Positions 8,426 through 27,533 of a stretch of DNA of 32,000 nucleotides are shown here, piece by piece. Where the stretch lies: the NCBI GenBank assembly GCA_964510795.1, contig CAZEDT010000004.1:65178-97177 (forward strand). The letters are read 5' to 3'. The DNA is from an uncultured Syntrophomonas sp. GTDB taxonomy: Bacteria > Bacillota > Syntrophomonadia > Syntrophomonadales > Syntrophomonadaceae. The translations under genes and the position numbers were made by a program. Under the pieces are notes generated by a model that was not told where the DNA came from, did not search any database, and saw nothing but the letters and a program-made list of their open reading frames with translations. Each line of letters opens with the position of its first letter. The stretch's first letter is position 1.

Positions 8426-8533
8426 ATTATAGTTGCCTCCGCATCAGAGCTAACCTATACTTGATAAAATAACTTATAAAATTTGTGGGGCATTGATATA
8501 TGTTTTCTTGAATTAAAGACGGGAGGTAAAATT

Positions 8534-8872
8534 ATGAAAAAAATTGAGGCTGTTATTAGACCCTCTAAACTGGCAGAATTAAAAGCGGCTCTTGATATAC
8601 TGGGTATCCGGGGAATGACCGTCTATGATGTGAAAGGCAGGGGCTTGCAGCGCGAAAAAAAACAGTACTACCGAGGGCAAGAACATGCAGTTGACTTATT
8701 TCCCAGGGTTAAAGTAGAAATAGTATGCGAGGATATCTCGGTGGAAAATATCATATCTACCATTCTGACTGTTTGCAGAACCGGCCAGGTAGGCGACGGA
8801 AAGATATTTGTGTATCCGGTGGAAAAGGTACTGCGGATTAGCACCCGGGAAGAAGGCAGTGCCGCTCTGTAG
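8534..8872 (+). CDS. glnK: P-II nitrogen regulatory protein
   Basis: MKKIEAVIRPSKL..., T-loop GRGLQREKKQYYRGQEH, C-terminal GDGKIFV.PVE. GGGAGG RBS at 8521-8526; the track start at 8483 is an upstream extension. Adjacent to amtB. Confidence 0.92.
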   Translation: MKKIEAVIRPSKLAELKAALDILGIRGMTVYDVKGRGLQREKKQYYRGQEHAVDLFPRVKVEIVCEDISVENIISTILTVCRTGQVGDGKIFVYPVEKVLRISTREEGSAAL

Positions 8873-9021
8873 ACCAGTCCGAACGAAAAGACAGGGGATC
8901 TTTTGCTTGCTCCAAACCAAAAAAACCTTTCGGCGTTTAACTATCCAGCAAACAAAAAACAACTTAAGATTGGTAAATACCATATTGATCGTTAAGCAAA
9001 CAAGCAAACTACTCTACACGT

Positions 9022-9059
9022 GAAACAGCTCGTTCCTCATCTGGGAAACGAGCTGTTTC
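9022..9059. terminator. Bidirectional hairpin between convergent glnK and glnA
   Basis: gaaacagctcgtt (9022-9034) pairs with aacgagctgtttc (9047-9059): a 13-bp perfect stem. Confidence 0.6.
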
Positions 9060-9097
9060 AGATTAATCGTAGATTTTGCTTGATCGTAGTGCCAATT

Positions 9098-10429
9098 TTA
9101 AAACTTTGTCAGGTATTGGCGCACTTCCCAAGGGCTTACTTGAACATTATAGTCTTGCCATTCTTCCATTTTGCCCTCTCTGAACTTCTCGTAAATATGT
9201 TCTCCCAGAGCCTCTTTGACTACCAGGTCTTTATCCAGTTCACACAGCGCTTCCAGCAGGCTGCCAGGCAGACTCTCAATACCCAGTTTTTTCCGGGTGG
9301 CTGAATCCATTTTGTAAATATTTGTATCTACTGGAGACGGCACCTCCATTCCTTTCGCAATTCCATCCAGCCCGGCTCGCAGCATTACCGCCATAGCCAG
9401 GTAGGGATTACAACTGGAATCGGGATTTCTAACCTCAACCCGCGTACTTAAACCTCTCTTGGCTGGTATTCTTAACAAACAACTGCGATTGGCTCCCGAC
9501 CAGGCAATATACACTGGTGCTTCATAACCAGGCACCAGCCTTTTGTATGAGTTTACCGTAGGGTTGGTTACAGCTGATAGTGCTTTAGCATGTTTCAGAA
9601 TGCCGGCCATATAATTGCGAGCCTTGTCACTGAGCTGATCCGCACTATTAGGATCCCAGAATATATTTTGGTCGTCTTTAAAAATAGATTGATGAATATG
9701 CATACCAGAGCCATTTATTCCGAATATGGGTTTGGGCATGAAAGAAGCATGCAGGCCATGGCGCTGGGCGATGGCGCGCACAGTTAATTTGAAGGTCATG
9801 ATAGCATCAGCTATGTGCAAGGCATCACCATATTTAAAATCTATTTCGTGCTGACCCGGAGCTGCTTCGTGATGAGAGGCTTCGATTTCGAAGCCCATTT
9901 CCTCCAGGGTGATGTCCATATCTCTGCGGATGTTTTCCCCCATGTCAATGGGGGCTAAGTCAAAGTAACCCGCATCATCCTGGGTCTGAGTAGTAGCCCG
10001 GCCATTTTCATCAGCCAGAAATAAGAAAAACTCTGCCTCCGGCCCCGCTTTCATGGTATATCCCATTGCCTCAGCTTCGCTTAGCACCCTCTTTAAATTG
10101 TTACGAGGACAACCGGCAAAGGGAGTTCCATCAGGATTATAGATATCACAGATTAAGCGCGCCACTTTACCATTGGATGATCTCCATGGAAAAATTACAA
10201 AGGTATCCAGATCTGGTATCAGGTACATATCTGATTCTGATATCTCAGCAAAACCATCGATAGATGAACCGTCAAACATGATCTCGCCTTCCAGGGCCTT
10301 CCCTAATTGGCTGACCGGGATGGCTATATTTTTCATAATTCCCTGTATATCAGTAAACTGCAAGCGAATGAACTTAACATCGTTGTCTTTTACCTTCTCC
10401 ATAATTTCGAATTTGCTTTTCTTAGTCAT
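9098..10429 (-). CDS. glnA: Glutamine synthetase, type I
   Basis: 443 aa. [55 protein letters not shown] and RIP..R......E.R.PD...NPY. Confidence 0.95.
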
Positions 10430-10463
10430 TCTGATCTCTCCTTATTTTAAATTGGTTCGACTT

Positions 10464-11060
10464 CTAAGGATGGACTAATGTCGCGGTGCCATGGCTGACC
10501 AGGAGCGACTCCTCGGCAATAATAATGGCCCGAGCCAGATCCTTCATGGTTATCCCCCGATCCATGCTATCCTTTTGCATCAAGCGGTAAGCCTCATTTT
10601 CAGTAATTGCCAAATTAGTCATAATAATACCCTTGGCTTTTTCAATAATTTTGCGGCTATTTAGGTTTTCTTTAAGCCTATCTACCTCATTCTGGGCAGC
10701 AATTAATTTGCTTCTATAGAGCATACACACTTCAATTACTGATAATAACGTATCCTCTGTATAGGGTTTTTGAATCTGGACCAGATCTTCCAGATTTCTA
10801 TTATCGCTTTCTCCCTTCAGTACCAGAACCGTGCCGAGATTATCATCTAGCAGGATACCAGTTACCTCCATGGTACTGCCGCCTTCCAGGTTAGAATCCA
10901 GAATAACCAAGTCTGGCAATATAGTTCTGGCCTTCCGCAATAGATCCGGTACATTCCGAGCTTCTGCCTGTATGCAATATCCGGCCCTAATCAGACTTTC
11001 CCGCAATATTTTCCGGCTATTTACCTTGCTATCGGCAATAATTATTCGAGCTGTTGACAC
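10464..11060 (-). CDS. Receiver-domain / ANTAR-domain RNA-binding antiterminator-type regulator
   Basis: 198 aa with a GTG start. N-terminal CheY-like fold (IIIADSK, DLVILDSNL, IQKPY). C-terminal ANTAR pattern (L.SRKIIEKAKGIIM.......EAY.LM.K.SMD....M.D.A.AII). Sits directly upstream of glnA on the same strand, with a 34-nt gap. Confidence 0.85.
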   Translation of the reverse strand: MSTARIIIADSKVNSRKILRESLIRAGYCIQAEARNVPDLLRKARTILPDLVILDSNLEGGSTMEVTGILLDDNLGTVLVLKGESDNRNLEDLVQIQKPYTEDTLLSVIEVCMLYRSKLIAAQNEVDRLKENLNSRKIIEKAKGIIMTNLAITENEAYRLMQKDSMDRGITMKDLARAIIIAEESLLVSHGTATLVHP

Positions 11061-11425: not shown

Positions 11426-13366
11426 ATGGTCAACCGGGAACAGCTAAGAATGTGTACATTACCTGAGATGTTTAATGACTCGGTTATTAAGTTTGGGGAA
11501 AGGAGATGCCAGTGGTTTAAAGTTGCTCCAGGCTCTGCCGAAACAGAATCTTTAACCTATGCCCAGGTGGGAATGATTGTTCGCGATTTATCTGCCGGAC
11601 TTATTTCCCTGGGAATTAACAAAGGAGAAAGAATCGCCATAATGGCCAATAACTGTCCGCAATGGTTGTGGGCAGACTTTGCCACACTGAACAGTGGTGC
11701 TGTAACAGTTACTGTATACCCATCACTTTCAGTAACGGAAATGAAATACATTATAAATGATTCCGGCAGCAAGATTCTCTTCGTTCGTGATAATGAAGGT
11801 GTACAAAAGGCTCTGGCTGCCCTGGATGACCTGCCATCCCTGCAAACAGTTATTGTTATGGAAGACGACTGCCCGCTTCCTGATAATCCAGCCTTTTTAC
11901 ACCTAAGTTCGGTTAGACAGAGGGGGCGGGTTTATCTTTGGAGAAATCCTTACTGTTATGAGCAGGTATGTGATTCGATTAAGCTATGGGATATGGCCAG
12001 TATTATATACACCTCTGGAACTACCGGCAACCCCAAAGGAGCAGTACATACGCATTCGAGTTTTATGTATGCGGTACAGGCGGATAATAACACATTTGCC
12101 CGTAATGATTGTGGAATTGATGAATACGGGGTACTGATATCCTTCCTACCTCTTTCTCATACCTATGAAAGACAATGCGGACAGATGCAGTCAATCGATG
12201 TTGGCTGTACAATCGCCTATGCGGAGAAGCCTCAGACTATGATAATGGATTTACAGCTTTTCAGACCAACCTGGTTCTGTGCTGTACCCCGAATTTTTGA
12301 ACGAATATATATGGCTATACGGGGTTTGGCCTCATCAACGCCGGAGGGCAAGGCCGCTTTTGAAAAAGCTATGGACATTGGTTTGCAAGTAGTGGACTAC
12401 CATGCTGATGAAGATGGCTTTATTGATATGGGGATAGATGTGGATGTTACGGAAAACTTGCCGGAGGAACTTAAGCAAGAATACCAATGGGCAGACCAAT
12501 TTGTATTTAGTAAGGTAAGAGGTCTCCTGGGCGGAAACTTCCAATTTGCTTTTTCGGCTTCAGCTGGTCTGCCGGCCAAGCTTTGCAAAGCCCTTTTTGC
12601 AATGGGAATAAGGGTCTGTGAAGGCTACGGCTTAACCGAAACCATGAATGCCGTTAACTTAAACAATCTCCGGGCGGTTCTGCCCGGCTCGATGGGACCA
12701 AGCAATTATTATGTTGAAGAAAAAATTGCTGAAGATGGGGAATTATTGGTTAGAGGGGGAATGCTATTCCAGGGCTATTTCAACAACCCCGAAGCCACAG
12801 CCGCAGCCTTTGATGAGGACGGATTTTTCCACACCGGTGATATTGCTGCTACAGTCTATAATAAAAAGCTAGGCATTAATTACTATAAAATTATTGACCG
12901 CAAAAAGAGCATCATGTGTCTTGATACAGGTAAAAACGTTCCGAGGGCCAGGGTTGAAGAAAAATTTGCTACCGCCCATTATATAGAACAGATTTGTGTA
13001 GTCGGAGATGAGCGCAAGTTTGTAGCAGCTGTTGTCGTACCTAAGTTCGAGATGATAATACCGGCTCTAAAAGCACAAGGACTGGAAGTGGATGAAACCC
13101 AAATTATATGGGCCGGCGATGAAGGCAGCAAGGTGATCATTCAGGTCGGCGAAGAGGTGATTAGCAACCCGTTATTGCGGAACCTGATTGACCAGGATGT
13201 AGCAGAGGCCAACAGTGAACTTGAGGATTATGAGCTGATTAAGAAGTACCATATTTCCAAACGCAGGTTCATTGAAGCCATGGATGAGATTACTCCTACC
13301 TTGAAGAATAAATACCGGAATATTATTAAGAACTACTCTGATGAAATAGAGGAATTATATAAATAG
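11426..13366 (+). CDS. Long-chain acyl-CoA synthetase (FadD15/COG1022-type AMP-forming ligase)
   Basis: 646 aa. IIYTSGTTGNPKGA, EGYGLTET, FHTGDI, IDRKK. The long C-terminal extension is typical of the COG1022 group. Confidence 0.85.
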   Translation: MVNREQLRMCTLPEMFNDSVIKFGERRCQWFKVAPGSAETESLTYAQVGMIVRDLSAGLISLGINKGERIAIMANNCPQWLWADFATLNSGAVTVTVYPSLSVTEMKYIINDSGSKILFVRDNEGVQKALAALDDLPSLQTVIVMEDDCPLPDNPAFLHLSSVRQRGRVYLWRNPYCYEQVCDSIKLWDMASIIYTSGTTGNPKGAVHTHSSFMYAVQADNNTFARNDCGIDEYGVLISFLPLSHTYERQCGQMQSIDVGCTIAYAEKPQTMIMDLQLFRPTWFCAVPRIFERIYMAIRGLASSTPEGKAAFEKAMDIGLQVVDYHADEDGFIDMGIDVDVTENLPEELKQEYQWADQFVFSKVRGLLGGNFQFAFSASAGLPAKLCKALFAMGIRVCEGYGLTETMNAVNLNNLRAVLPGSMGPSNYYVEEKIAEDGELLVRGGMLFQGYFNNPEATAAAFDEDGFFHTGDIAATVYNKKLGINYYKIIDRKKSIMCLDTGKNVPRARVEEKFATAHYIEQICVVGDERKFVAAVVVPKFEMIIPALKAQGLEVDETQIIWAGDEGSKVIIQVGEEVISNPLLRNLIDQDVAEANSELEDYELIKKYHISKRRFIEAMDEITPTLKNKYRNIIKNYSDEIEELYK

Positions 13367-13555: not shown

Positions 13556-15160
13556 TCAAACTCGCTCATCAGGCTGTCGGTAGTCCAGTTTTTTGTCACC
13601 AATCCCGTCCCCTTGGCTCTTGCGCCCGTAGATAACTCCTAGCTTTTTCATTTTATTTCTCAGGGTACTCGGGTTGATCCCCATCAACTCGGCCGCTCCT
13701 CCCTCACCATGGATCTTACCCCTGGTAATCTTTAAAACCTGTTGGATGTGCCTGGACATAACCTCATCCAGTAAAAGCGGGCCGATTTCCTTATCAACCG
13801 GGTTGGCGGCTGGCTTTTTTTGACTGGGCAGGCCAATATTCTCAAGACTTAAGGGTCCGCACTGGTTCAAAATAAGAGCCCGTTCAATAACATTGGCTAA
13901 TTCGCGTACATTGCCCGGCCAGTCGTAACTGACCAGCAGGTCAATGGCGCCGGGGGCCAGCGTTGGGGGCGGATATATTCTCAGTTCCCGTGCTTTACGA
14001 GCAATATAATGATCAATCAGAACAGGAATATCCTCTCTTCTTTCTCTTAAGGGAGGGATGTCGATCGGAAATACGTTAAGCCTGAACCATAGGTCCTCGC
14101 GGAACTTGGCTTCTAAAACCATATTTTTCAGGTCACGGTGAGTAGCCGCAACAATTCTTATATTCACAGGAATAACCCTCGACCCGCCCACCCGTTCGAT
14201 TACTTTTTCCTGTATTACTCTGAGTAACTTGACTTGTGCCTGCAGGGAGAGTTCTCCTATCTCGTCAAGAAAGATGGTCCCATTGTCAGCACGCTCAAAG
14301 TATCCGCGTGTTTGCGACAGAGCTCCTGAATAGGCTCCCTTTTCGTGTCCGAATAATTCACTCTCAATAAGAGACTCTGGAATGGCGCCGCAGTTGATCT
14401 TGATAAACGGACCGTTTCTTCTGAGAGATAAGGAGTGAATGGCATTGGCGATCAAATCTTTCCCTACCCCGGTCTCACCCAAGAGAAGTACCGGGCTATC
14501 CAGCGGTGCTACCTGCATTACCATCTGCATGACACCCTTAAGACCAAGATGCTCTCCCACTATTTCATGGCCAGTCATGTCTTGGAGCTCATCCTTGAGA
14601 TATTGGTTATTATCAGCCAGTATCTCATTTAGTCTTACGACCTCACGGTGCTCAAGAGCAACCTTCAAAGCCACCACAAAGGGAGTCCCTAACAAGGTAA
14701 ACAAGGCCGCCTGTTCTTTGGTATAACCTTCCGCTCCTTCTGCAACCAGTACCAGACTCCCCATTATTTGTTCCTGCGATACCAGACGCATGACCAGCAA
14801 TGAGGTTGCCTTTATATCCTGATAACGGAGCATGTGTTTGGCTATCCAGCTCGTTTCCGGATAGTCTATGATCATGGCCTCATTCCACCTGGTTTGGCGT
14901 GACTGGATAAGTTCGTCCCTGGCTTGATCGGATAAAGGAACGACTATGTCCAATTTTTTCCCGCCCGATGCAGAAGCAGCTGCAATAATGCGCATCGCTT
15001 GAATATCCGGTTCGTAGAGCTGCAGGTATATCCTGTCAGCAGGTATCTGGTTTTCTTGCAGAAAACTCAGACACGAAAACATGGACTGTTCTATCTCCAA
15101 ATAGCTGCATATCCGTAATGTTGCCTCCGAGAAAAACTCATTATTATCCATCTTCATCAT
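13556..15160 (-). CDS. Sigma-54-dependent transcriptional activator (N-terminal GAF-like sensor, AAA+ core, Fis-type HTH)
   Basis: 534 aa. Walker A LLLGETGVGKD, ESELFGHEKGAYSGA (a GAFTGA-loop variant), GTIFLDEIGEL, RIVAATHRDL, REDLWFRLNVFPI..PPLRER.EDI. C-terminal AAELMGINPSTLRNKMKKLG. Confidence 0.9.
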   Translation of the reverse strand: MMKMDNNEFFSEATLRICSYLEIEQSMFSCLSFLQENQIPADRIYLQLYEPDIQAMRIIAAASASGGKKLDIVVPLSDQARDELIQSRQTRWNEAMIIDYPETSWIAKHMLRYQDIKATSLLVMRLVSQEQIMGSLVLVAEGAEGYTKEQAALFTLLGTPFVVALKVALEHREVVRLNEILADNNQYLKDELQDMTGHEIVGEHLGLKGVMQMVMQVAPLDSPVLLLGETGVGKDLIANAIHSLSLRRNGPFIKINCGAIPESLIESELFGHEKGAYSGALSQTRGYFERADNGTIFLDEIGELSLQAQVKLLRVIQEKVIERVGGSRVIPVNIRIVAATHRDLKNMVLEAKFREDLWFRLNVFPIDIPPLRERREDIPVLIDHYIARKARELRIYPPPTLAPGAIDLLVSYDWPGNVRELANVIERALILNQCGPLSLENIGLPSQKKPAANPVDKEIGPLLLDEVMSRHIQQVLKITRGKIHGEGGAAELMGINPSTLRNKMKKLGVIYGRKSQGDGIGDKKLDYRQPDERV

Positions 15161-15315
15161 CCTATAATCCTCATATTCAATAATTCGATTAAGAAGGAGC
15201 TATTAGGGATTAATTTTGACGCATAGGCCTGCAACTGGGAGCTCAAGGATACCTCCATCCGGTTCTAATGGTTTGTACTAATTGATATACGAACTGCTAC
15301 CTATTCAAATCGCCG

Positions 15316-15348
15316 TATATCACAAAATATATACCCAATCGTGATATA
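15316..15348. promoter_or_regulatory. Inverted repeat, candidate upstream activator sequence for the sigma-54 activator
   Basis: TATATCAC-N17-GTGATATA, centred about 100 bp upstream of the -24/-12 promoter. Confidence 0.45.
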
Positions 15349-15426
15349 TGGCAAGCAAATCATCATAATTGGCAATCTGACCTCCGGGAAGTTCTAAAGA
15401 TACCGGTTTGTCGGGCAGGATATGGC

Positions 15427-15442
15427 TGGCATAATACTTGCT
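15427..15442 (+). promoter_or_regulatory. Sigma-54 (-24/-12) promoter
   Basis: TGGCATAATACTTGCT. The GG and GC are spaced exactly as in the consensus TGGCAC-N5-TTGCW. Lies about 90 bp upstream of the UbiD ATG and is divergent from the sigma-54 activator gene. Confidence 0.8.
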
Positions 15443-15532
15443 CTTAAGAATGGTAAATCAGAAAGGGGGCTCCGGCCAGGCAAATAGTCTTAATTCAGGC
15501 TTACCAATAATATTTTAAGGAGGTTGCAGTTT

Positions 15533-16927
15533 ATGAAAACCAACTGGAAAGACATGCGGGAGTTTATCGATTTTCTTGATACCAAGGGTCAGATCCGCCA
15601 CGTTACAGAAGAAATTGATCCCGATTGGGAAGTTAACTACATTACCAGAACTACCTTACAAAAACTGGGTCCATGCGTGATATTCGACAATATTAAGGGT
15701 GCCAAATACCCACTGGTTACCGGTTTATTAGCTGAAGACAAGCGGTTTCTGTGGGCACTGGGCCTGGATAATTGGAGCGATTTCAATGAATCATGGGCCG
15801 AGAGAACTCAGAACCTGATACCTCCCAAAATTGTTACCGAAGCACCGTGTCAAGAAGAGGAAATCCTGGAAGCTGATATTGACTTAAATGAAATATGCAA
15901 CGTCAAATGGCATCAGAAGGATAAGAGTGCTTTCCCGGGAACGCTGCTTATCTCAGTTACCAAAGACCCGCATACTGGCGTGCAGAACTCCGGTATCTAT
16001 AGGATGGGGATACAGGAAAAAAACAAGCTGGGTTGGGGAGCACCCCTATCTACCCATGGTCGTATGCACCTTACTGCCTGGGAGAAAACCGGCCAGCCCA
16101 TGCCGATTGCTTTGGTTTGCGGAGTTGATCCTATCATTGAAATGATGGGAGGAGTAGGAACATCACCCGGTATTGACGAGTACTATCTGGCTGGTGGATT
16201 GCGCGGGGAAGCAGTAGAAATGGTCAAATGCAAGACCATTGATATGTTAGTGCCAGCCACGGCTGAATGGGTAATGGAGGGCTATATTTATCCGAATTCC
16301 CTGGAACTGGAGAAGACTGAATGGTTCGGAGAATATACTGGACATTATGGCGAGGCAGCCGTATTGCCGATGGTTGTGATTAAACATATTACCCACCGCA
16401 AAAACCCTATTTTCCACGGAACCCGTGAGCAATGGTATCCTTCAGAAAGCCACTATGTAGTAGGCAGAACCCATCAGGCTGAGACGTACAAGATTGTTAA
16501 AAAGCTGGTTCCGGGAATCCTGGACATGAGGTGTAACCCCGCTTATGAATGTATCGTCAAGATTGACAAGCTATATAAGGGTCATCCTCAACGGGTCATG
16601 AATGCCGTCTGGGGATCAAGTCGTGGACCATACAAACATGTAATTGTAGTTGACAAAGATATCGATATTTGGAACTACGAGATGGTTCATTGGGCCATGT
16701 CTACCCGAGTGAAGGCAGACCGTGATGTCACCATTCTCCCCAGAATACCTGGACAGTGGCTTGATCCCTCCAGTGCCTTCAAAGAAAGACAGTATCAGGC
16801 CGGGCTGGGTATTGACGCTACCATGCCGAATGAAGAATATGATCGCTGCGGCGATAAAGTCCCCAGTCTGGTAGACGACCCAGAGATTATGGCCAAAGGA
16901 AAGGCTAAATGGGGCGATACCTTCTAA
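15533..16927 (+). CDS. UbiD-family (prFMN-dependent) reversible decarboxylase, substrate unknown
   Basis: 464 aa from the ATG at 15533. AAGGAGG at 15517-15523 rules out the track TTG at 15524, which has zero spacing. UbiD hallmarks: MREFIDFLD..GQ, NSGIYRM, P.A...G.DP, IDEY.LAGGLRG, FGEYTGHYG, HR.NPIF, HVIVVD.DID and W.MSTR..ADRD. Confidence 0.88.
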   Translation: MKTNWKDMREFIDFLDTKGQIRHVTEEIDPDWEVNYITRTTLQKLGPCVIFDNIKGAKYPLVTGLLAEDKRFLWALGLDNWSDFNESWAERTQNLIPPKIVTEAPCQEEEILEADIDLNEICNVKWHQKDKSAFPGTLLISVTKDPHTGVQNSGIYRMGIQEKNKLGWGAPLSTHGRMHLTAWEKTGQPMPIALVCGVDPIIEMMGGVGTSPGIDEYYLAGGLRGEAVEMVKCKTIDMLVPATAEWVMEGYIYPNSLELEKTEWFGEYTGHYGEAAVLPMVVIKHITHRKNPIFHGTREQWYPSESHYVVGRTHQAETYKIVKKLVPGILDMRCNPAYECIVKIDKLYKGHPQRVMNAVWGSSRGPYKHVIVVDKDIDIWNYEMVHWAMSTRVKADRDVTILPRIPGQWLDPSSAFKERQYQAGLGIDATMPNEEYDRCGDKVPSLVDDPEIMAKGKAKWGDTF

Positions 16928-17054
16928 GCACCGGGGTGATCAGGTAAAAAGCAGATCCCCGGTTGGCTGGGATGGATTACTGACAAACTGGATTCCCCGC
17001 TTTCCCCTGGCGGATAAGCGGGGAATCCTCTATCCATAAAGGAGGATTGACCAA

Positions 17055-18299
17055 ATGAAACTTAAAGGCAAGGTACAGGCTCTTATCGGTGCCTCAGTGC
17101 TCTCCTGGTTGTATGGCAGTCTAATCTTCGGGCTGCTGGGGAGACTGGCGCCCATCTGGATGGAAAGGTTTCAGGTAGGGAAGGGTGCCATCGGTTTGTT
17201 AATGACCATCGCCCTTCTAGCTATGGGAGTAACCATGTATTATGCTGGAAAATTGGCTGATGAGAAGGGTACCAAGCTATCACTTACAATCGGTGTTTTG
17301 TTGACCGCCGCGGCTCTGCTGGGTATGGCTTATGTGCAAAACCTTTATACGCTTTACGCTTGCGGGATTATCCTGGGGGTCAGCGGGAGTCTGGAGTTTG
17401 GTACTGGTTTAGCCTGTGTTCAACGCTGGTGGCCGGAGAAAAGCGGCCTGGTATCAGGAATATTCAACCTCTGCTTTGGTGCGTCGGCTGCAGTAATGGT
17501 ACCCATTTATCATTACCTGTTGCAAAGTCAGGGATATTATCATGCTCTTATTTCGATAACTTTGCTCGTTGTGGTGATCGGATTAATTTTCGCTCAGCTT
17601 ACTGCCTCTCCAGATGAGACAACCGCTGGAGCGAAACCCGGTCAGATCATGCCATCATCCCCGGACGGAGAAGAACCATCATTTTTTACCGTTAAGGAAG
17701 CCTTGCAGACGTCAACATTTTGGTTGATATGGGCCATTTGGGCACTATCAGGTACGGCCGGAATTGGACTGGTGATGCTGGCCCTGCCTCTCTCACAGGA
17801 TATTGGTCTTACCTTGGCTCAAGGCAGCCTCTTGCTGGTTACCTTCAATGCTGTAAATGGCTTGATTCGGATGGTTGTAGGCCCGCTGGCAGATAAAATT
17901 GGTGGCAAGGCCATTATGGCACCGATTTTCACAGTTGGAGCTATCGCCTGTTTCCTGCTTACCCGGGCAGAAAGCTTCGGTGCTGCCGCTATCTATCTGG
18001 CCCTTATCGGAGGCACGCTGGGAACAGTATTTACCGTTACCCCGGTATTGGTCAGGCAGTATTTTGGTTTAAAAAATTTTGGCGCTATATTTGGTTTAAT
18101 ATTTACTTCCTACTGTTTCTTCTCGGCCCTGGCCGGTCCATTTTTAGGAGGCGTAGTAAGGGATCTCACTGGTAACTTTACCGCTACCGCCATATATTTT
18201 GGCGTTTTTCTAGCCATCTCAGTCGCTCTGGTAGTTAAGTTGACTCCACCCCAACAGCCGGTAACTGTTAACTCAGACAGCCTTGATTCCTCCATCTAA
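17055..18299 (+). CDS. MFS transporter, oxalate/formate-antiporter (OFA)-like subfamily
   Basis: 414 aa, about 12 predicted TM segments. G.LAD..G motif after TM2 and an OFA-like CVQRWWPEKSGLVSGI segment. AAAGGAGG RBS. Confidence 0.75.
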   Translation: MKLKGKVQALIGASVLSWLYGSLIFGLLGRLAPIWMERFQVGKGAIGLLMTIALLAMGVTMYYAGKLADEKGTKLSLTIGVLLTAAALLGMAYVQNLYTLYACGIILGVSGSLEFGTGLACVQRWWPEKSGLVSGIFNLCFGASAAVMVPIYHYLLQSQGYYHALISITLLVVVIGLIFAQLTASPDETTAGAKPGQIMPSSPDGEEPSFFTVKEALQTSTFWLIWAIWALSGTAGIGLVMLALPLSQDIGLTLAQGSLLLVTFNAVNGLIRMVVGPLADKIGGKAIMAPIFTVGAIACFLLTRAESFGAAAIYLALIGGTLGTVFTVTPVLVRQYFGLKNFGAIFGLIFTSYCFFSALAGPFLGGVVRDLTGNFTATAIYFGVFLAISVALVVKLTPPQQPVTVNSDSLDSSI

Positions 18300-18469
18300 T
18301 TAAACCTGCCAGGCAGGCAGATAGTAAGCATTCGTGGATTCAGGATAAATGAATTCCTATATTGACTCCCATTTTCGCAAACAGTCCAGGCTGAACTAGA
18401 GTTAGCAAGCAACCAATGTTTTTAAACCAGACCAACCAAGCAGATATTATTGAAGAGGGGGTTGAAGTT

Positions 18470-19045
18470 GTGAAAAAACGCATAGTAATTGCAATAACAG
18501 GTGCAACCGGGGTAATTTACGGGATTGAGGCTCTCCGTTTGCTGGCAGCCAACGATAATGTTGAAACCCATTTGATTGTCACCGAATCGGGCAAACAAAA
18601 TATCGAAATAGAAACCGACTACGCTGTCAATGATGTCCTGGGCTTCGCAGATTATGTATATGACGATAAAGATGTAAGCGCTTCTCTGGCCAGTGGTTCT
18701 TTCCTTACCGATGGTATGGTGGTGATTCCCTGTACGATAAAGACCCTCTCTGGAATTGCTAATTCATACACTACCAATCTTACCGTACGGGCAGCGGATG
18801 TTACTCTGAAAGAGAAGCGCAAACTCGTTCTCGTGGTCAGGGAAACCCCCTTGCACAAAGGTCATCTTCGGTTGATGAACATAGCTGCCGACGCTGGTGC
18901 CCACATTCTTCCGCCGATTCCGGCTTTCTATCATCGTCCCCAAACCATAGAAGATATAGTTCACCAGACGATCGGTAAGATATTCGACTATCTTGGGGTT
19001 GAGAATAACCTTTATGAACGCTGGGAAAGCCCTGCCAAAGAATAA
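18470..19045 (+). CDS. ubiX: UbiX-type flavin prenyltransferase
   Basis: KRIVIAITGATGVIYG, VVIPCTIKTLSGIANSYTTNL..RAADV.LKE.R.LVLV.RETPL. GTG at 18470, 8-9 nt after GAGGGGG, gives the usual ~190 aa; the track start at 18416 looks like an extension. Confidence 0.9.
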   Translation: MKKRIVIAITGATGVIYGIEALRLLAANDNVETHLIVTESGKQNIEIETDYAVNDVLGFADYVYDDKDVSASLASGSFLTDGMVVIPCTIKTLSGIANSYTTNLTVRAADVTLKEKRKLVLVVRETPLHKGHLRLMNIAADAGAHILPPIPAFYHRPQTIEDIVHQTIGKIFDYLGVENNLYERWESPAKE

Positions 19046-19218
19046 CACAGGTCAGACGATGACCTGTACCAGGTTTTTTCCTGGTTCTTTAGGATAGCTG
19101 TTGGCACCCGAGAAACTAACCTGTCAAGATATCCAGGATTTGATGGAAGTTTTTTTAATTGCCAGCTCGCTGGTGGGGGGCAGAGGAAAAACCGTTTTCC
19201 GGGAAAGGGGGAAATAGG

Positions 19219-19635
19219 GTGTCGGTTAAACAAACCCAAGCCAGCCTGGTCGAAGTAATAGCTGGAGAGGAAACCCAGCGTATTGTGTGTACGGCTATCC
19301 TGGTCGGCCACGACTTGAATGTTATCATCCAAGGTGGAGACCGATCCCATATCGGAGCGGCAGCCATGGCCGTTCCCCGACCAAGTCTCAAGAATCCTGA
19401 AAAGATGAGTGCTACCGCATCGGTGCTTACCGTAACAGGTCACAAAGAAGATGAGCTTGCTCGGCTGGTTGCCTTGCACCTGGCTGCCCATTTAGGATGC
19501 GTTACAGCAGTAGTCGCGGGTATACATGTTGATGGCGCAAGTGAAAAGGATATAGCGGACATAGTTGCGAATGTAAAAATAGCCTGTCATGATCTCGTGC
19601 AGTCCATCATGAAAAATCGATCCCTCTCAGAATAA
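19219..19635 (+). CDS. LpdD-like small subunit / prFMN-decarboxylase accessory protein
   Basis: Pattern G.DLNVIIQGGDRSHIGAAAMAVPRPSL....SAT.SVLTV.GHKEDELA......L......VVAGIHVD......I matches my memory of L. plantarum LpdD-family proteins. The GTG start at 19219 follows AAGGGGGA. Position after ubiX fits. Confidence 0.6.
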   Translation: MSVKQTQASLVEVIAGEETQRIVCTAILVGHDLNVIIQGGDRSHIGAAAMAVPRPSLKNPEKMSATASVLTVTGHKEDELARLVALHLAAHLGCVTAVVAGIHVDGASEKDIADIVANVKIACHDLVQSIMKNRSLSE

Positions 19636-19663: not shown

Positions 19664-19696
19664 GCATCGGCAGGAATTGCAGCTCCCTGCCGATGC
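19664..19696 (+). terminator. Hairpin after the LpdD-like gene
   Basis: gcatcggcagg pairs with cctgccgatgc (11 bp). No T-tract, so terminator function is uncertain. Confidence 0.35.
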
Positions 19697-19840
19697 GACC
19701 AAACCCCATTGTACACCATGGTATGCGCATAGCCTCCTCAAACCATTTTTTCACCTGCCCCTTGGAGCTTCTGAGACAATACCTAAAGGTAAGCATATCC
19801 ACAAATTGTGAAACGCGTATGAATGGAGGTATGATCTATT

Positions 19841-20371
19841 ATGCAGGAACCCAGGGTAATCCTCGTTGATGAAAATGATAAGGAAATTGGTACTGCGGGT
19901 AAACTTGATGCACATAAAAATCCGAGATTGCATCGGGCTTTTTCAATCTTTATTTTTAATTCACGGGGAGAACTATTAATACAACAACGTGCCAGTACTA
20001 AATATCATTGCCCGGATTTGTGGTCCAACACCTGCTGCAGTCATCCTCAGCCCAATCAAACCCTTCAACAGGCGACTCACCTGCGCCTGCGGGAGGAAAT
20101 GGGCTTTGATACCGATCTGAAGGAAATTGGTGCCTGCATATACGAAGCCCATTTCGATAATGGTTTGACCGAATCCGAATATGACCATATCTTTATAGGT
20201 AAATGGAATGGGAATCCGCAGGTCAATCCCCAAGAAGTTGCCGACTATATGTGGATATCATTAAAACAATTAGTAAACCAGATGAATCATAATCCAGCTA
20301 AATTTACAATTTGGCTGCAAATTGTTATGAAAAAATATCTAACCAGCTTTGATGCTGTACTTAAGCTTTAG
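19841..20371 (+). CDS. idi: Isopentenyl-diphosphate delta-isomerase, type 1 (Nudix-fold)
   Basis: 176 aa. By alignment from memory to E. coli Idi: LHRAFS, LLIQQRA..K...P..WSNTCCSHP, TESEYDHIF (metal and catalytic Cys/His/Glu positions conserved). Confidence 0.88.
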   Translation: MQEPRVILVDENDKEIGTAGKLDAHKNPRLHRAFSIFIFNSRGELLIQQRASTKYHCPDLWSNTCCSHPQPNQTLQQATHLRLREEMGFDTDLKEIGACIYEAHFDNGLTESEYDHIFIGKWNGNPQVNPQEVADYMWISLKQLVNQMNHNPAKFTIWLQIVMKKYLTSFDAVLKL

Positions 20372-20490
20372 GGGAGCAGTTGCAAACTGGAACAGCTCGT
20401 TCAGAAGTAAACCTCTGCCCCCTAAAAGAAAAAGCAGAAAAATTACTCCCTGCTTTCATGTTTCTAAACCAATTTATAAAATGTTGTATA

Positions 20491-20946
20491 CTAGACATCT
20501 AAAATATTTAAAGCCGGTGGTATACAGGCCACCATCTTATCATACACCATCTGTAATGGTCTATGTTTCCAGTCAATAGTTGTTATGCCATCATTGTTGT
20601 AATTTACAATCACCACAGTTTTATTGTTGGTTAATTTTCTAGCCATTACTGTAACACACTTATAATAATCCTCTAATTCTGCATAGCTATGTGCAGGGTA
20701 GAAATAATAAACGTCATTTCCTTGTTTCTCATATTTAGCCTTTCCAAATATAGATTTTAGTAATGCTTCAATTTCTTTTTTGGTATCATCCAGGTTCTTT
20801 TCCACTGTATATTTCTTCAATTCGTTACCTCCTACTACATTCTGCTCATCTACAGCTTGCTTCAGCTTGGCTAAATTCATAAGTACTTTATAATCTTCAC
20901 TATGCTCAAAGGCGTAATTGCCTAATATATTGTCTATTAATTCCAT
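20491..20946 (-). CDS. Hypothetical protein (151 aa), island cargo
   Basis: Single clean ORF in an AT-rich region. Extended -10 (TGATATAAT) on the minus strand near 21015-21030. No recognisable motif. Confidence 0.5.
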   Translation of the reverse strand: MELIDNILGNYAFEHSEDYKVLMNLAKLKQAVDEQNVVGGNELKKYTVEKNLDDTKKEIEALLKSIFGKAKYEKQGNDVYYFYPAHSYAELEDYYKCVTVMARKLTNNKTVVIVNYNNDGITTIDWKHRPLQMVYDKMVACIPPALNILDV

Positions 20947-21096
20947 TGGCTGAATCCACTACTTCTCTAATTTGTTTAATCACTTTAATAAATGCGTCTC
21001 CATGGTGGTTTATTAATGTTATGCCTCTAAATTGATTATATCAAGTATTATGCAACAATTTTTATTGGTTTATAGGAGAACTTCGAATGTCACTTT

Positions 21097-21161
21097 CTGC
21101 CCTGAAAAAAGATTTTTCATTCATCAGTGGTGGCGCTGCGCGCCATGGGGGTCTGATACGG
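21097..21161 (+). repeat. Second copy of the ligase 3'-end/flank fragment
   Basis: ctgccctgaaaaaagatttttcattcatcagtggtggcgctgcgcgccatgggggtctgatacgg differs from 6701-6765 at 6 of 65 positions (manual alignment). Confidence 0.85.
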
Positions 21162-21203
21162 GAAAAAAATACATAACCAGCTTTGCTGCTGTACTTAATT
21201 AGG
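21162..21203 (+). repeat. Displaced copy of the idi 3' end
   Basis: gaaaaaaatacataaccagctttgctgctgtacttaattagg parallels 20329-20372, gaaaaaatatctaaccagctttgatgctgtacttaagctttagg (the last codons and stop of idi). Confidence 0.8.
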
Positions 21204-21291
21204 TTGGGAAAGTGCTGCAAGGAGGCGGGTGACATGTTTGCGGTCAGTAGTTGGCTAGTGAACAATAGCTATCGCTTAATTAAATTTCCAC

Positions 21292-21316
21292 CTACAAAAT
21301 CTACAAAATCTACAAG
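21292..21316 (+). repeat. Short tandem repeat ctacaaaat x2.7, adjacent to a 9-bp-stem hairpin (21315-21361)
   Basis: ctacaaaat ctacaaaat ctacaag. Then agtgtcctt ... aaggacact. Confidence 0.7.
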
Positions 21317-21412
21317 TGTCCTTAAGTTCTAATAACAACATTAATAGAAATCAAGGACACTTGGCAACGTTGGTATGGAAAGCTAACTTTCATCGGTTTG
21401 CTTATTGCCTTC

Positions 21413-21793
21413 CTATTTGTTTAGAATATAACCCGCTAAAACTGCTTGTACTTCATAAATATCAAGACTTTTGTTAAACTGTTTTTCTATCGGCACTGGA
21501 TTGCCCGAAATCCATATTTTTAGTTCAGCATCTAAATCAAAATGTCCGGCTGTTTCAATGCTGAAGTGTGTGATGCTCTTATAAGGAATAGAGTGATATT
21601 CAATTTTCTTGCCAGTCATCCCCTGCTTATCAACCAAAATTAATCTCCCGTTTGTAAAAACGAAAAGGTCTCTTACCAGCTTATAAACCTTTTCAATTTT
21701 TTCATCACTGGCAAGTATTTTGGAAAAATCTTTCTCAATTGTTTTGATATCAACTTCTGATGCATTTCCCATCAAACCATCTAAAATACCCAT
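21413..21793 (-). CDS. Bacterial PH-domain protein (bPH_1 / YokE-like)
   Basis: 126 aa. GILDGLMGNASEVD....E..F..IL...E.IE..YKL.RDL.VFTN.RLILVDKQG.TGKK.EY.SIPY.SI..F..ET.G.FD.D.EL.IW. This is the pattern of the small cytosolic PH-like family. Confidence 0.7.
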   Translation of the reverse strand: MGILDGLMGNASEVDIKTIEKDFSKILASDEKIEKVYKLVRDLFVFTNGRLILVDKQGMTGKKIEYHSIPYKSITHFSIETAGHFDLDAELKIWISGNPVPIEKQFNKSLDIYEVQAVLAGYILNK

Positions 21794-22054
21794 TTCATTT
21801 CCCCCTTATTATTCCCATTACTTGTATCTCTATTGTACCCCTTAAAATCTATGTATTATAGAGTTTTATTGCCTAATTCCATAATTTTCTATAATAAATT
21901 ACCTGCTGCTTTCCCAGCGGTAATTGTATCAGAATCGAAATCATTCACCACAGGAATACCATCAAGCAGTCCCGTTCCAGGCAAAAATGTTAAATCACTA
22001 GACCAGGAAGCGCTTGGATGTTAAAGGGATTATTCGAGCTTTTAATTGAGAGTA

Positions 22055-22270
22055 CTAAGGTTTCTTAATTACTTTAGCCCAAGTTCTCTTGTGGCAGTTT
22101 GGGCACTCTACATACTTTGTGGTAACCCCTTGAGGGCTTATAAAATCCGTTAGTGTATTAATTGCAAATTTATTACTGCAATTTTTACACATATATTCAG
22201 ACGTTCTTGATTGCCATATTGCTAATAAAAACAGACCAACAACAGCTATAAACATAATGTAATAAGCCAT
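22055..22270 (-). CDS. Small membrane-anchored zinc-ribbon protein
   Basis: 71 aa. N-terminal TM helix (YYIMFIAVVGLFLLAIW), then CKNC...(27 aa)...CPNC. Confidence 0.55.
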   Translation of the reverse strand: MAYYIMFIAVVGLFLLAIWQSRTSEYMCKNCSNKFAINTLTDFISPQGVTTKYVECPNCHKRTWAKVIKKP

Positions 22271-22795
22271 GGTTTAACCTCCTTTAGATTTGCTATGCCT
22301 CTATTCATCATATCCTAATATGCCGCATATGCCTATAATTGATATCAGCATTTGAGGGATTTTAACGTCCCATGGTTGGCTCCCGTAATTAAATATAAAA
22401 TTTAGGCGTATGAAATATATCACAAAAGCTGTGATATCCCCAGCCCGTGGCGCTTTTGCGTAAATTGCTTTCCTTTTACGGCACTGCTAAGTCAGCACTC
22501 GCCCCCTACAATGGCATTTACCCCCACAATTAGCAGCATAAGCTGATATAGAACCACGGGTCCAGGACAAGGGAACTGTTTGAATATTTCAGCAAAACAA
22601 ACTAGAGTATCAAGAATATTCTATCACATATGTAATATTTATAATATTTTGATATGACTTTTGATATTATGGTGTTATAATATACACATAAAGAATGATG
22701 CTGAAGGGAGGAACCGCATGGGTTTAGTCGCAGTCAGCTCCAATGAACAGTCATTTAATCCAGACATTGCCAACTTAATTAAAGGAGGTCTTTGT

Positions 22796-23047
22796 ATGAA
22801 GAACCAAGCGATTCTTAAACTGCATTATCCTGAAAGAGTTAAATGGATCGATCAGCAGCTTAAAAAAGGTATGGGATTAGCAGATATATTTGATCTTGAT
22901 TTGCCGGAAAGTGAAGACGGCATAATGTCCAGCCGGGTTAATGTTGAAGTAATGAATCAATGGAGAGAATTTACAGCTACCAGGATGGAAAAATCAAAAG
23001 ATTTATTTTCGATGGCATTATGTGAATTTATGATTAATCATAGGTAA
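22796..23047 (+). CDS. Hypothetical 83-aa protein with a possible C-terminal ribbon-helix-helix
   Basis: AAAGGAGG RBS 7 nt before the ATG at 22796; the track start at 22661 lacks an RBS. The tail SRVNVEVMNQWREFTATRMEKSKDLFSMALCEFMINH has a strand-helix-helix look. Confidence 0.45.
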   Translation: MKNQAILKLHYPERVKWIDQQLKKGMGLADIFDLDLPESEDGIMSSRVNVEVMNQWREFTATRMEKSKDLFSMALCEFMINHR

Positions 23048-23121
23048 ATAATACAAAAGATACATATTGTGTTGAATAACAGAGAGCACATCTATCAGGC
23101 TAATTGGGCTTCGTTATTAAA

Positions 23122-23173
23122 GCCAATTCATAATTTCCAGAGATAGACGGTGTTTGTTGTCCAGAGACTGACG
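23122..23173 (+). repeat. 52-nt repeat, copy 2 (IS3/IS150-type end-like)
   Basis: gccaattcataatttccagagatagacggtgtttgttgtccagagactgacg differs from 6206-6257 at 8 of 52 positions. Confidence 0.45.
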
Positions 23174-23371
23174 GAGTAGCTGGCCAAGAAACATCGTCTT
23201 TTTATGACCCTCACAGATCCAACTGCCTTCTCAATAATGCACCTGTAAATACAAGTTTTCCAGGAATAGCCCACACTTATTTCGTTTAAAAAAGCCTATT
23301 TTCCACCCCCTCATTCTCAATATGTGGTAATTGGTCCCAAATAACCCTAATTAAATTATGGATGAATCTTA

Positions 23372-23950
23372 TTATTGAGCTTGAACACCTCTTGCTTGTA
23401 ACTTCCCAATAATATACCTAGCCTCAGGCTCATCAATGAATGGAGCTATTTTAATCATTTTCATACCATATTCAAAAGCTATATTACCTTTGCCAAATCC
23501 CCAAAATTCCATGCTACCACTGTGAGAAAACAAACTATTTCTCGGAACTTGTGAAACCATTAGGTTTCTTATCAATGAACAATCATAATTCTTAGTGATT
23601 CCAAGATTAAATGCTTGATTTGAAACCGACATAGTACTTCCATAAAATGTTATTACCTGTTTGCCGACGATTTGCCATAAAAAAGCTACGAGAGCAAATG
23701 CACCTCCAGCAGTCCAACCTAATAGCCATGCAATTAAAAAGAGATCTGGCGTTCCTGCTTTATTAGCCAAAAGTTCACTTGATACCTTTATTTCTCCAAA
23801 AAACCATCCTATTAACCAAATTGGCAAGAAAATAATTGCAAACCAGTTCTTTCGGGTAGGTATTGTAATTTTTATGATAGATCCAAGTTCATCGATTTGG
23901 GATCTACCATTAGGATTAACTACCGACAAATTTATGCACCTCCATAACAT
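23372..23950 (-). CDS. Hypothetical membrane protein (two central TM helices)
   Basis: 192 aa. WFAIIFLPIWLIGWFFG and LFLIAWLLGWTAGGAFALVAFLW, followed by a ~100-aa soluble C-terminal part. Confidence 0.5.
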   Translation of the reverse strand: MLWRCINLSVVNPNGRSQIDELGSIIKITIPTRKNWFAIIFLPIWLIGWFFGEIKVSSELLANKAGTPDLFLIAWLLGWTAGGAFALVAFLWQIVGKQVITFYGSTMSVSNQAFNLGITKNYDCSLIRNLMVSQVPRNSLFSHSGSMEFWGFGKGNIAFEYGMKMIKIAPFIDEPEARYIIGKLQARGVQAQ

Positions 23951-24309
23951 CGAATCTTTTCAAATGATCCTAGAATACCTTTAAGCAGCTGTTAGTAGAT
24001 TTTTATACTTTAAAATAAATTCTGTTAACCTTATCATTCTCCTGCATTATTTTGGAAATAACCGCCACCAATTCAAAGTAATTTCTTATGTATAATACTT
24101 ACAATACGGCTATACGTTTTCCCGACGAATACGACAATGGTTTTGTTAGCCTGATCAGTATTGACTTAAATGGTTATTCCAAAAAGCACGGCACTAAAAG
24201 ACTTTAACTCTCCCAGCTTGGTTAAACATAGCTAAAATATCACCTTTACTTATCCCTAACACAATTATGGTCTACGAACCTCTTTTTTTACATATGCAAA
24301 TTTTACGGA

Positions 24310-24341
24310 TTGACCCTGACATTAATGTCATAGTTTATAAT
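24310..24341 (+). promoter_or_regulatory. MerR-type promoter with an operator palindrome in an over-long spacer
   Basis: TTGACC (24310-24315), 20-nt spacer containing the perfect palindrome TGACATTAATGTCA (24317-24330), TATAAT (24336-24341). Confidence 0.65.
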
Positions 24342-24366
24342 TATCGTAGTGAGAGGGGGGGCTAAT

Positions 24367-24735
24367 TTGCATATTGGTGAATTGTCCAAAAAAACTAGTA
24401 TTAGCGTCAGGTCGTTACGATATTACGAGCAAAAAAACCTGCTACATTCCGAGCGTATGGCAAATGGATACAGGATATTTGATGATTCAGCAGTAAATAC
24501 GGTGCAGATCATTCAATTTTACCTAAGTCTTGGTATCACTACAGATGAGATCAGCAAAATATTAGAGTGCCCGATAACCATGGATGAACAACAGCCTTTA
24601 TGCAATAAAGCTATTGCATTATACGAAGCCAGGTTAAAAGAGGTAAACGAACAGATCAGTATATTAGAAACCCTTAAGGCTAACCTGGAAAAACGGATCT
24701 CGGCTTTTCGAAGCCATTATACGCAAACCCCGTAA
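24367..24735 (+). CDS. MerR-family transcriptional regulator
   Basis: LHIGELSKKTSISVRSLRYYEQKNLL...R..NGYR.F. C-terminal coiled coil. A TTG start at 24367 follows GAGAGGGGGG; the track GTG at 24349 is the alternative. Confidence 0.85.
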   Translation: MHIGELSKKTSISVRSLRYYEQKNLLHSERMANGYRIFDDSAVNTVQIIQFYLSLGITTDEISKILECPITMDEQQPLCNKAIALYEARLKEVNEQISILETLKANLEKRISAFRSHYTQTP

Positions 24736-24765
24736 TAAATAACACAGTATTTTGGAGGTGGAGCT

Positions 24766-25825: not shown

Positions 25826-25941
25826 AAGATGGCTATGTCAAGTCGCTGACTAAAGATTTGGGCATTAGCTGGAGTTCTCGTAAGAATTCAGCCAGCAGTA
25901 GTGCACTGACTAGCTCCAGTACCTTACAATTGCCACAAACT

Positions 25942-27514: not shown

Positions 27515-27533
27515 CATTGAGTAATAGGAAACC

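Follow-up and report, generated by a model that had tools for sequence, protein, structure and literature searches.

Probable sigma-54 control of an operon encoding an uncharacterised UbiD-type decarboxylase, with its own transporter and cofactor supply, in an uncultured Syntrophomonas

Introduction

What does a UbiD-type enzyme act on when its gene is accompanied by a transporter gene and by genes for its prenylated flavin mononucleotide (prFMN) cofactor, and does the transporter bring an acid into the cell or exchange it for the product? These questions are raised by a 32,000-nucleotide stretch of DNA from an uncultured Syntrophomonas sp. (contig CAZEDT010000004.1, positions 65,178 to 97,177; referred to here, at its full length, as the window). 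A first-pass annotation, made from the letters alone, had seen in it an operon of four co-directional genes with short gaps, encoding a UbiD-family enzyme, a major facilitator superfamily (MFS) protein, UbiX and a small LpdD-like protein, and lying divergent from the gene of a sigma-54 activator. Our analysis indicates that the locus is a genuine operon for an uncharacterised UbiD-type decarboxylase, together with its own acid transporter and a full kit for making prFMN, and that sigma-54 control of it is probable. We read it as a catabolic or detoxifying module, complete in itself and induced by its substrate, that serves a single acid of aromatic or heteroaromatic type, probably monocarboxylic, a reading to which we give a probability of roughly 0.6. 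The kind of system is already known; the novelty lies in a UbiD subtype not characterised before, whose cassette for supplying the cofactor is unusually complete. The features on which the argument draws are as follows, in window coordinates.

13556 to 15160, minus strand: sigma-54 enhancer-binding activator (Sigma54_activat, AAA_lid_14, HTH_8)
15312 to 15375, no strand: putative upstream activator site, a palindrome plus a third half-site (inverted repeat, half-site clustering)
15427 to 15442, plus strand: predicted -24/-12 promoter, TGGCAT-N5-TTGCT (sole exact match in the window)
15533 to 16927, plus strand: UbiD-family (de)carboxylase, probably prFMN-dependent, of the His307/His314 subtype, 464 aa (Pfam, TIGR00148)
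16970 to 17035, plus strand: stem-loop in the UbiD-MFS spacer, without a U-run (fold -51 kcal/mol, z = -2.7)
17055 to 18299, plus strand: MFS transporter of the SfMCT/OFA-related branch (Pfam MFS_1)
18416 to 19045, plus strand: UbiX flavin prenyltransferase (NF004685)
19047 to 19085, plus strand: two hairpins and a U6 run right after ubiX (z = -3.0)
19219 to 19635, plus strand: predicted LpdD-family prFMNH2-binding chaperone, 138 aa (PF21758)
19664 to 19698: stem-loop in the lpdD-idi spacer, without a U-run
19841 to 20371, plus strand: type-1 isopentenyl diphosphate (IPP) isomerase, idi (NF002995, TIGR02150)

A Five-Gene Module

The four genes of the original annotation and their common orientation stood, while two of its other statements did not: the gaps of 127, 116 and 173 nt between UbiD, MFS, UbiX and LpdD genes can hardly be called short, and the operon does not end with lpdD, since a fifth conserved gene, idi (19841-20371), had been overlooked. 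With idi included the gaps range from 116 to 205 nt. The UbiD gene starts at ATG 15533, preceded by an AAGGAGG ribosome-binding site, and the most likely start of lpdD is GTG 19219. The conserved module is thus UbiD-MFS-UbiX-LpdD-Idi, and the gene neighbourhood is repeated in related genomes, as the same five-gene order recurs in Enterocloster asparagiformis-type loci, with small gaps and with lpdD overlapping idi, and 10 of the 98 loci surveyed (below) carry the compact module. The public names of the Enterocloster orthologs are generic: ‘UbiD family decarboxylase’, ‘MFS transporter’, ‘hypothetical’ or ‘LpdD-like domain’, and ‘IPP isomerase’.

Two of the spacers are strongly structured, that between the UbiD and MFS genes and that after ubiX, and among the three stem-loop regions a U-run follows only the second. 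The UbiD-MFS stem-loop is possibly an element for mRNA processing or stability, and the hairpins and U6 run after ubiX are possibly a partial terminator or attenuator; the spacer structures may tune differential expression inside the operon. We infer co-transcription of all five genes. A sigma-70-like site before idi (19806-19835) was rejected as a promoter, its -10 element ending 6 nt before the start codon and overlapping the ribosome-binding site, and an Rfam scan of the operon found no riboswitch and no leader RNA.

An Uncharacterised UbiD Subtype

The family of the enzyme is given by its Pfam domains, UbiD_N, UbiD (Rift-related) and UbiD_C (E = 3e-15, 2e-54 and 3e-30, respectively), and by its score of 310.9 bits against the generic subfamily model TIGR00148, above the cut-off of 244.85. 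None of the NCBIfam equivalogs for such enzymes (VdcC, menaquinone SCO4490, UbiD, PpcA/B and BagN) reached its cut-off, the VdcC model NF041204 scoring 268.2 bits for a required 650. Among solved enzymes the nearest is HmfF from Pelotomaculum thermopropionicum (6H6X, E = 6e-64), with 35% identity over 412 aligned columns. The enzyme therefore lies outside every characterised group, in keeping with the earlier remark that stretches of it could not be aligned by eye to BsdC. The residues N152, R157 and E267 (the N-x-G-I-x-R and F-G-E motifs of the E/D-R-E network) align with the motifs of HmfF and E. coli UbiD and are invariant in a 56-sequence alignment of the clade, and the enzyme is probably active as a prFMN-dependent (de)carboxylase.

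A housekeeping role, in which the locus would be a cluster for quinones or isoprenoid cofactors, UbiD and UbiX a decarboxylase of the polyprenyl-hydroxybenzoate type and Idi a source of isoprenoid units, could appeal to the linked idi and to weak matches to the menaquinone SCO4490-type model (232 bits) and the E. coli UbiD model (220 bits). Both scores are far under their cut-offs, 496 and 788 bits, and the window has no polyprenyltransferase or other quinone gene. The module, moreover, has a patchy, accessory-like distribution with variable content, and it has an inducible regulator of its own as well as a transporter for solutes, all of which leaves the housekeeping role barely credible.

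His314 of the enzyme aligns with HmfF Arg304, and the HmfF segment that carries Arg331 is deleted in the window enzyme; these two arginines probably bind the second carboxylate of furandicarboxylic acid (FDCA). His307 aligns with HmfF His296/297, which is key to furan specificity (PMC7976604). Since the enzyme passed no equivalog cut-off and bears the His307/His314 signature, it stands, judged by its sequence, as a specificity subtype of its own within a clade that has not been characterised. That clade comprises more than 100 clusters at 54-73% identity in a database of 5.8 billion proteins, from Bacillota, Thermodesulfobacteriota/Deltaproteobacteria, Acidobacteria, Chloroflexota, Burkholderiales and SAR324, all entered merely as ‘UbiD family decarboxylase’. 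Identity within the clade spans 54-75%.

The gene neighbourhoods of the clade were surveyed at 98 loci, annotated with reference proteins from Pfam-annotated neighbours; a genome scan with a single protein had given 4 loci, and the broader set came from an alignment-based metagenome scan. The His307/His314 signature occurred in ten of the loci, exactly those with the compact module (MFS, UbiX, LpdD, Idi), and their UbiD proteins are 71-75% identical to that of the window and share an N-P-A-Y-E motif. Their hosts are the window organism, gut Enterocloster, a Peptococcaceae metagenome-assembled genome (MAG) and one other lineage. At the other 88 loci (54-70% identity), position 307 is Phe, Ala, Cys, Thr, Ser or Gly, position 314 is Ser (Ala once and Thr once), and the N-P-A-Y-E motif differs.

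The context of the 88 loci differs as well. This sister clade, much larger than the His/His subclade and represented by dozens of metagenome contigs from anoxic habitats and several phyla, has a cluster that runs HyuA-HyuB-UbiD-(PaaK-like ligase)-FAD, 2Fe2S and Mo subunits of the xanthine dehydrogenase (XDH) family, accompanied by TRAP, TctC or ATP-binding cassette (ABC) binding proteins. HyuA/B were detected in 41 of these loci and XDH subunits in 41, and most of the remainder are short contigs. The cluster is found in several phyla (L006-L010, L013-L016, L026-L028, L032, L034, L038-L047, L050-L055, L060-L068, L073-L079, L094 and others), also with a TetR regulator, and ferredoxin plus aldehyde ferredoxin oxidoreductase (AOR) sometimes replace the XDH subunits. 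The best matches of the partner enzymes were caprolactamase, the 4-hydroxybenzoyl-CoA reductase alpha subunit and PaaK, none at its equivalog cut-off, so that no substrate can be deduced from them. The HyuAB-UbiD-ligase-XDH cluster may be an undescribed pathway of ring degradation. The open-access papers searched made no mention of UbiD together with hydantoinase or with Enterocloster, and contained nothing relevant on UbiD with xanthine or aminoimidazole.

Two further arrangements were seen in the survey. Some UbiD proteins of the clade (L017 and L018, 8001-9917; proteins P0101, P0102 and P0105), 636-642 aa long, have a CoxG/SRPBCC ligand-binding domain fused at the N-terminus and are divergent from an XDH-family operon. 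Another XDH-family operon, with a 2Fe2S subunit, a Mo subunit, a fusion of about 790 aa between FAD-binding and GltD/YgfK-like domains and a PucR-type regulator, stands beside the Enterocloster and L011 modules (L002 12158-17389, L036 14161-21072, L011 7005-12414), in L011 also with a flavoenzyme like BaiCD and bilirubin reductase. That the Enterocloster operon was the published ucd urolithin dehydroxylase operon was rejected, as the gene order differs, and the ucd papers make no mention of UbiD. The idea of a purine or N-heterocycle substrate, suggested by the PucR-type regulator and XDH genes by the Enterocloster module, was not confirmed.

A Complete Supply of Cofactor

UbiX passes the models NF004685 (251.9 bits, cut-off 188) and TIGR00421 (229.4, cut-off 108.9), and Idi, a NUDIX open reading frame (ORF), passes NF002995 (170.5, cut-off 127) and TIGR02150 (134.8, cut-off 105.8). 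The nearest solved relatives of UbiX are the O157 enzyme, which can use dimethylallyl diphosphate (DMAPP; E = 4e-52), and AnUbiX/PAD1, which is specific for it (E = 8e-51), with PaUbiX, specific for the monophosphate (DMAP), farther away (E = 2e-32). Gln184 of the window protein falls at the position of AnUbiX Gln203, a residue that contacts the beta-phosphate of DMAPP, the residue at this position not fixing the prenyl donor by itself (PMC6541611). Every UbiX linked to the clade has Gln or His here. Taken with the DMAPP-using relatives, Gln184 would make sense of an adjacent DMAPP-making Idi, which likely supplies DMAPP to UbiX. That Idi belongs to the module follows from the same gene order, tight spacing and lpdD/idi overlap in E. 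asparagiformis, and we found no description of an idi gene inside a UbiD/UbiX cluster in the open-access literature.

The small protein was rightly called LpdD-like. It matches PF21758, now named LpdD_chaperone in Pfam, with 119.1 bits against a gathering score of 27 (E = 1e-34), its direct match to LpdD (8pzh) being weak (E = 0.005). The Mn2+ site of LpdD is formed by His35, His61 and Asp63 (PMC10865409); the two histidines have aligned counterparts in His44 and His75 of the window protein (138-aa numbering), where Glu77-Asp78 stand at the position of Asp63. The first-pass annotation had gone on to speak of an ‘LpdD(BsdD)’ triad, which fuses two unrelated proteins: LpdD is a prFMNH2-binding chaperone, and the zinc-ribbon subunit VdcD/BsdD has no sequence similarity to it (PMC10865409, PMC8379154). 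By homology the window protein is an LpdD-family prFMNH2 chaperone and not a BsdD/VdcD protein. The operon has no VdcD-like ORF, the PF21758 protein being its sole small protein, with no other intergenic ORF of at least 60 aa.

The Transporter: Uptake or Exchange

The MFS protein had been assigned to the OFA type (2.A.1.11), and the operon tentatively cast as a device for exchanging acid for product. Neither idea was supported. The protein scores 131.7 bits against the OFA subfamily model TIGR00890, which requires 374.85, and 105.8 against the OxlT model TIGR04259, which requires 335. Its best curated match is SfMCT (NF049980, 197.3 bits), an SLC16-type L-lactate/H+ symporter that is also its nearest solved structure (6G9X, E = 5e-29, residues 21-402 aligned), followed by OxlT (8hpj, E = 7e-14). 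As the SfMCT score falls under the equivalog cut-off of 320, the substrate is by that test not lactate. The arginine of transmembrane helix 8 (TM8) is shared by all three (Arg272 in the window protein, Arg280 in SfMCT and Arg272 in OxlT), and OxlT Lys355 aligns with Tyr353 of the window protein. If, as we assume, OxlT Arg272 and Lys355 and the residues aligned with them bind substrate, the single carboxylate-binding site of the window protein suggests a monocarboxylate.

The link between transporter and enzyme is genuine, as MFS orthologs (50-60% identical) come after UbiD in all but one of the five His/His lineages, and in L002, L004 and L011 they do so directly, at 50-54% identity. In loci of the E. 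lavalensis type (L003, L019 and L020) the MFS gene is missing, and UbiD is followed directly by UbiX with the other synteny unchanged. In L006, from a Bacillota MAG, the exact UbiD-UbiX slot is filled by DctPQM of a tripartite ATP-independent periplasmic (TRAP) system, and the sister clusters carry binding-protein-dependent uptake systems (TRAP, TctC, ABC), which are importers only.

It is here that the alternative has to be weighed in which decarboxylation would build a proton-motive force, the MFS protein being either an antiporter of precursor and product like OxlT or a uniporter that is electrogenic. As in Oxalobacter, where OxlT is paired with oxalyl-CoA decarboxylase, an MFS protein of a related branch accompanies decarboxylation and the TM8 arginine is kept; the branch contains OxlT, as the match to 8hpj and that to the OFA model attest, the ortholog in Enterocloster bears the JGI name ‘OFA family oxalate/formate antiporter-like’, and in four lineages the gene sits between catalytic and cofactor genes. 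Uptake of an anion with consumption of a proton in the cytoplasm could be electrogenic even without antiport. Against this, the protein misses the OFA and OxlT cut-offs and is nearer to a symporter, it has Tyr in place of Lys355, its gene is optional in sister loci (L003, L019 and L020), and uptake-only systems replace it in relatives; the decarboxylation of a monocarboxylate, as is established chemistry, gives an uncharged product that needs no carrier. We regard energy-conserving exchange as unlikely, antiport being neither needed nor indicated by these comparisons. The nearness to SfMCT, the absence of the gene in E. lavalensis and its replacement by TRAP in L006 make substrate uptake more likely than antiport, and we infer from them the direction of transport: the MFS protein is probably an importer of the acid substrate.

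Activator, Promoter and Operator

The regulatory features noticed at first sight were borne out, with some refinement. The divergent activator matches Sigma54_activat (E = 7e-68), AAA_lid_14 and HTH_8 in Pfam, and its AAA+ motifs are intact (GETGVGKD and FLDEIGE, Walker A and B). Its direct match to GAF_2 is weak (E = 0.01, under the cut-off); the sensor is called GAF-like on account of P0160, a protein with GAF and GAF_2 hits on record and 53% identity to residues 1-195. The best non-self homologs are 53-63% identical, and there is no close ortholog. The loop that canonically reads GAFTGA is GAYSGA, as had been noted; among the 120 nearest homologs, GAFTGA was found in 116, GSFTGA in 3 and GAYSGA in none. 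Both substitutions look conservative.

The promoter element TGGCATAATACTTGCT at 15427-15442 precedes the start codon of UbiD by 91 nt. An exact TGGCAY-N5-TTGCW match occurs once in the window against 0.14 expected, and with one mismatch allowed there are 3 against 2.96 expected, a stringency at which the search is uninformative. The palindrome, placed by the earlier note about 100 bp upstream, is there and is longer than had been described: its 12-nt arms (15312-15323 and 15341-15352) are complementary at 11 of 12 positions around a 17-nt spacer, and its centre is 96 bp upstream of the -24 GG. Beyond it lies a third half-site, TTGCCAATT, at 15367-15375. Two of the seven TTGCCRWWT matches in the window fall within the 372-nt region between activator and UbiD, and the left arm of the palindrome carries a one-mismatch copy.

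The same half-site recurs with the nearest activator relative on a long contig, P0141 of L099, which is 62% identical over its full length and has a nearly identical helix-turn-helix (HTH) recognition helix. P0141 is divergent from a cluster (L099 1-8536) that encodes three paralogs of UbiD, two ATPases of the Mrp/ParA type and several small proteins. In the intergenic region between them, a GG-N10-GC element, TGGCGTGAAAATAGCA, stands about 60 nt ahead of the first of the UbiD genes; the region also has a TTGCCGTATTTGGCAA element and TTGCC...GGCAA repeats, and all three TTGCCRWWT matches in the 15.5-kb locus lie inside its 247 nt. Taken together, these signals make it probable that the window operon is enhancer-dependent and substrate-inducible.

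The L099 cluster resembles the arene carboxylase clusters of anaerobes. With P0141 as its putative controller, it lends something to the proposal that the window UbiD is physiologically a carboxylase that activates a neutral arene or heteroarene, as has been proposed for anaerobic benzene, naphthalene and phenol degradation, with the MFS protein exporting or re-importing the acid. The sister clade also adjoins ATP-dependent HyuAB enzymes and CoA ligases, and UbiD reactions are reversible (PMC8988006). Unassisted carboxylation is, for its part, thermodynamically unfavourable (PMC8252502), and the window module has a carboxylate-type transporter and lacks an ATP-dependent activating enzyme, a PaaK-type CoA ligase and downstream pathway genes. 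We think a physiological carboxylase quite improbable.

Relatives of the activator's sensor and DNA-binding domains accompany the operon in other lineages. In L004 a translated search found next to the MFS gene (2863-3726, minus strand) an intact relative of 287 aa without the AAA+ module, which matches the activator in its sensor (29% over residues 3-182) and in its HTH (39% over residues 430-525), and in L012 (3426-3632, minus strand) and L011 (5840-5983, minus strand) just an HTH remnant lies between the MFS and UbiX genes. This pattern looks like a loss of domains that converted an enhancer-binding protein into another kind of regulator. L011 has a related element, TTGCCGCATTTGGTAA, some 190 nt ahead of the UbiD gene and no -24/-12 element there, and the Enterocloster module has a PucR-type regulator in place of the sigma-54 activator. 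The predicted sigma-54 dependence is confined to the window's version of the operon.

Genomic Surroundings

The GC content of the operon is core-like, at 42-50%. Just after idi it falls from about 45% to 34-39% (window 20400-29000), and it recovers near a tRNA-Sec gene (28852-28946, minus strand). The low-GC stretch, which encodes bacterial PH-domain proteins, a protein with a phage MuF C-terminal domain and a zeta-toxin-like kinase, looks like a mobile island inserted beside tRNA-Sec. Upstream lie an IS200-like Y1 transposase ORF (3135-3959, minus strand), a nitrogen-assimilation cluster (7166-11060) with genes for an ammonium transporter, a P-II protein, glutamine synthetase and an ANTAR-domain response regulator, and a FadD11-like acyl-CoA ligase gene (11426-13366) convergent with the activator. 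No -24/-12 element was found before the nitrogen-assimilation genes or the ligase gene.

How the Module May Work

By this reading, the GAF-like domain would let the activator detect the acid or something related to it. Bound at TTGCC-type half-sites about 100 bp upstream, the activator would remodel the sigma-54 holoenzyme and drive the -24/-12 promoter. The MFS protein would bring the acid into the cell. Idi would convert IPP to DMAPP, with which UbiX would prenylate FMNH2 to prFMNH2, and the LpdD-family chaperone would pass this to apo-UbiD and aid its activation. UbiD would then remove CO2, and the uncharged product would diffuse out or go to unlinked enzymes.

Such a system would work like LpdC/LpdB/LpdD and HmfF/HmfG while belonging, on the scores above, to none of the VdcBCD, HmfF, LpdC and OxlT groups. 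As in Lactobacillus plantarum (PMC10865409), there is a UbiD, a UbiX and an LpdD-family chaperone gene directly after ubiX, and the metal-site histidines are kept; in L. plantarum, however, lpdC is unlinked from lpdBD, the window UbiD is not LpdC-like, the match to LpdD is weak, and the window adds the MFS gene, idi and a sigma-54 activator. HmfF/HmfG (P. thermopropionicum 6H6V/6H6X; Cupriavidus basilensis) offers the nearest solved structure and shares the specificity histidine at His307, but differs by its 35% identity, by Arg304 at the position of His314 and by the Arg331 segment. Genes for furoyl-CoA synthetase or a Mo-dependent dehydrogenase were not found in the window, and an XDH-family operon is adjacent only in Enterocloster and L011. 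The VdcBCD, BsdBCD, ShdBCD and EcdBCD operons likewise pair a UbiD and a UbiX with a small accessory protein and handle aromatic acids; the window UbiD falls far below the VdcC cut-off (268 vs 650 bits), and their VdcD, a zinc-ribbon enzyme subunit, is not LpdD-like (PMC8379154).

Several observations weigh against this reading of the module. The subclade and the wider clade contain no characterised member by which a substrate could be identified, and sequence does not reveal which way the MFS protein transports or how its transport is coupled. The contact with sigma-54 is itself a prediction, made for a loop that reads GAYSGA. The palindrome taken alone is of modest significance, having been equalled in 35 of 1000 dinucleotide shuffles. 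A full-length ortholog of the activator was not found beside another His/His-type operon, and no rpoN gene is visible within the window. Finally, with gaps of this length and a hairpin and U-run after ubiX, lpdD and idi may have separate transcripts.

A wider proposal joins three parts: that the His307/His314 subfamily acts on an aromatic or heteroaromatic acid that no known UbiD handles, that the five-gene cassette is portable and makes holo-enzyme without oxygen or host factors, and that the sister cluster represents an undescribed cooperation of HyuAB and UbiD on an aromatic or N-heterocyclic ring. Taken as a whole we put it forward tentatively, and rather doubt that all of it will hold.

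Significance

Only a small number of UbiD enzymes have been characterised, and many are hard to activate away from their host. A cassette in strict anaerobes in which UbiX, an LpdD-family chaperone and Idi are encoded beside the decarboxylase would be a natural minimal activation kit, one that could be used to study the maturation of prFMN without oxygen and to express difficult UbiD enzymes. The His/His signature gives concrete positions for mutagenesis of specificity, and Enterocloster strains that have the transporter, set beside those that lack it, provide a natural comparison for its role. The sister HyuAB-UbiD-ligase-XDH cluster is widespread in metagenomes from anoxic habitats and appears to be undescribed, and the occurrence of the compact module in Enterocloster possibly points to a new reaction by which gut microbes transform an aromatic acid from the diet or the host.

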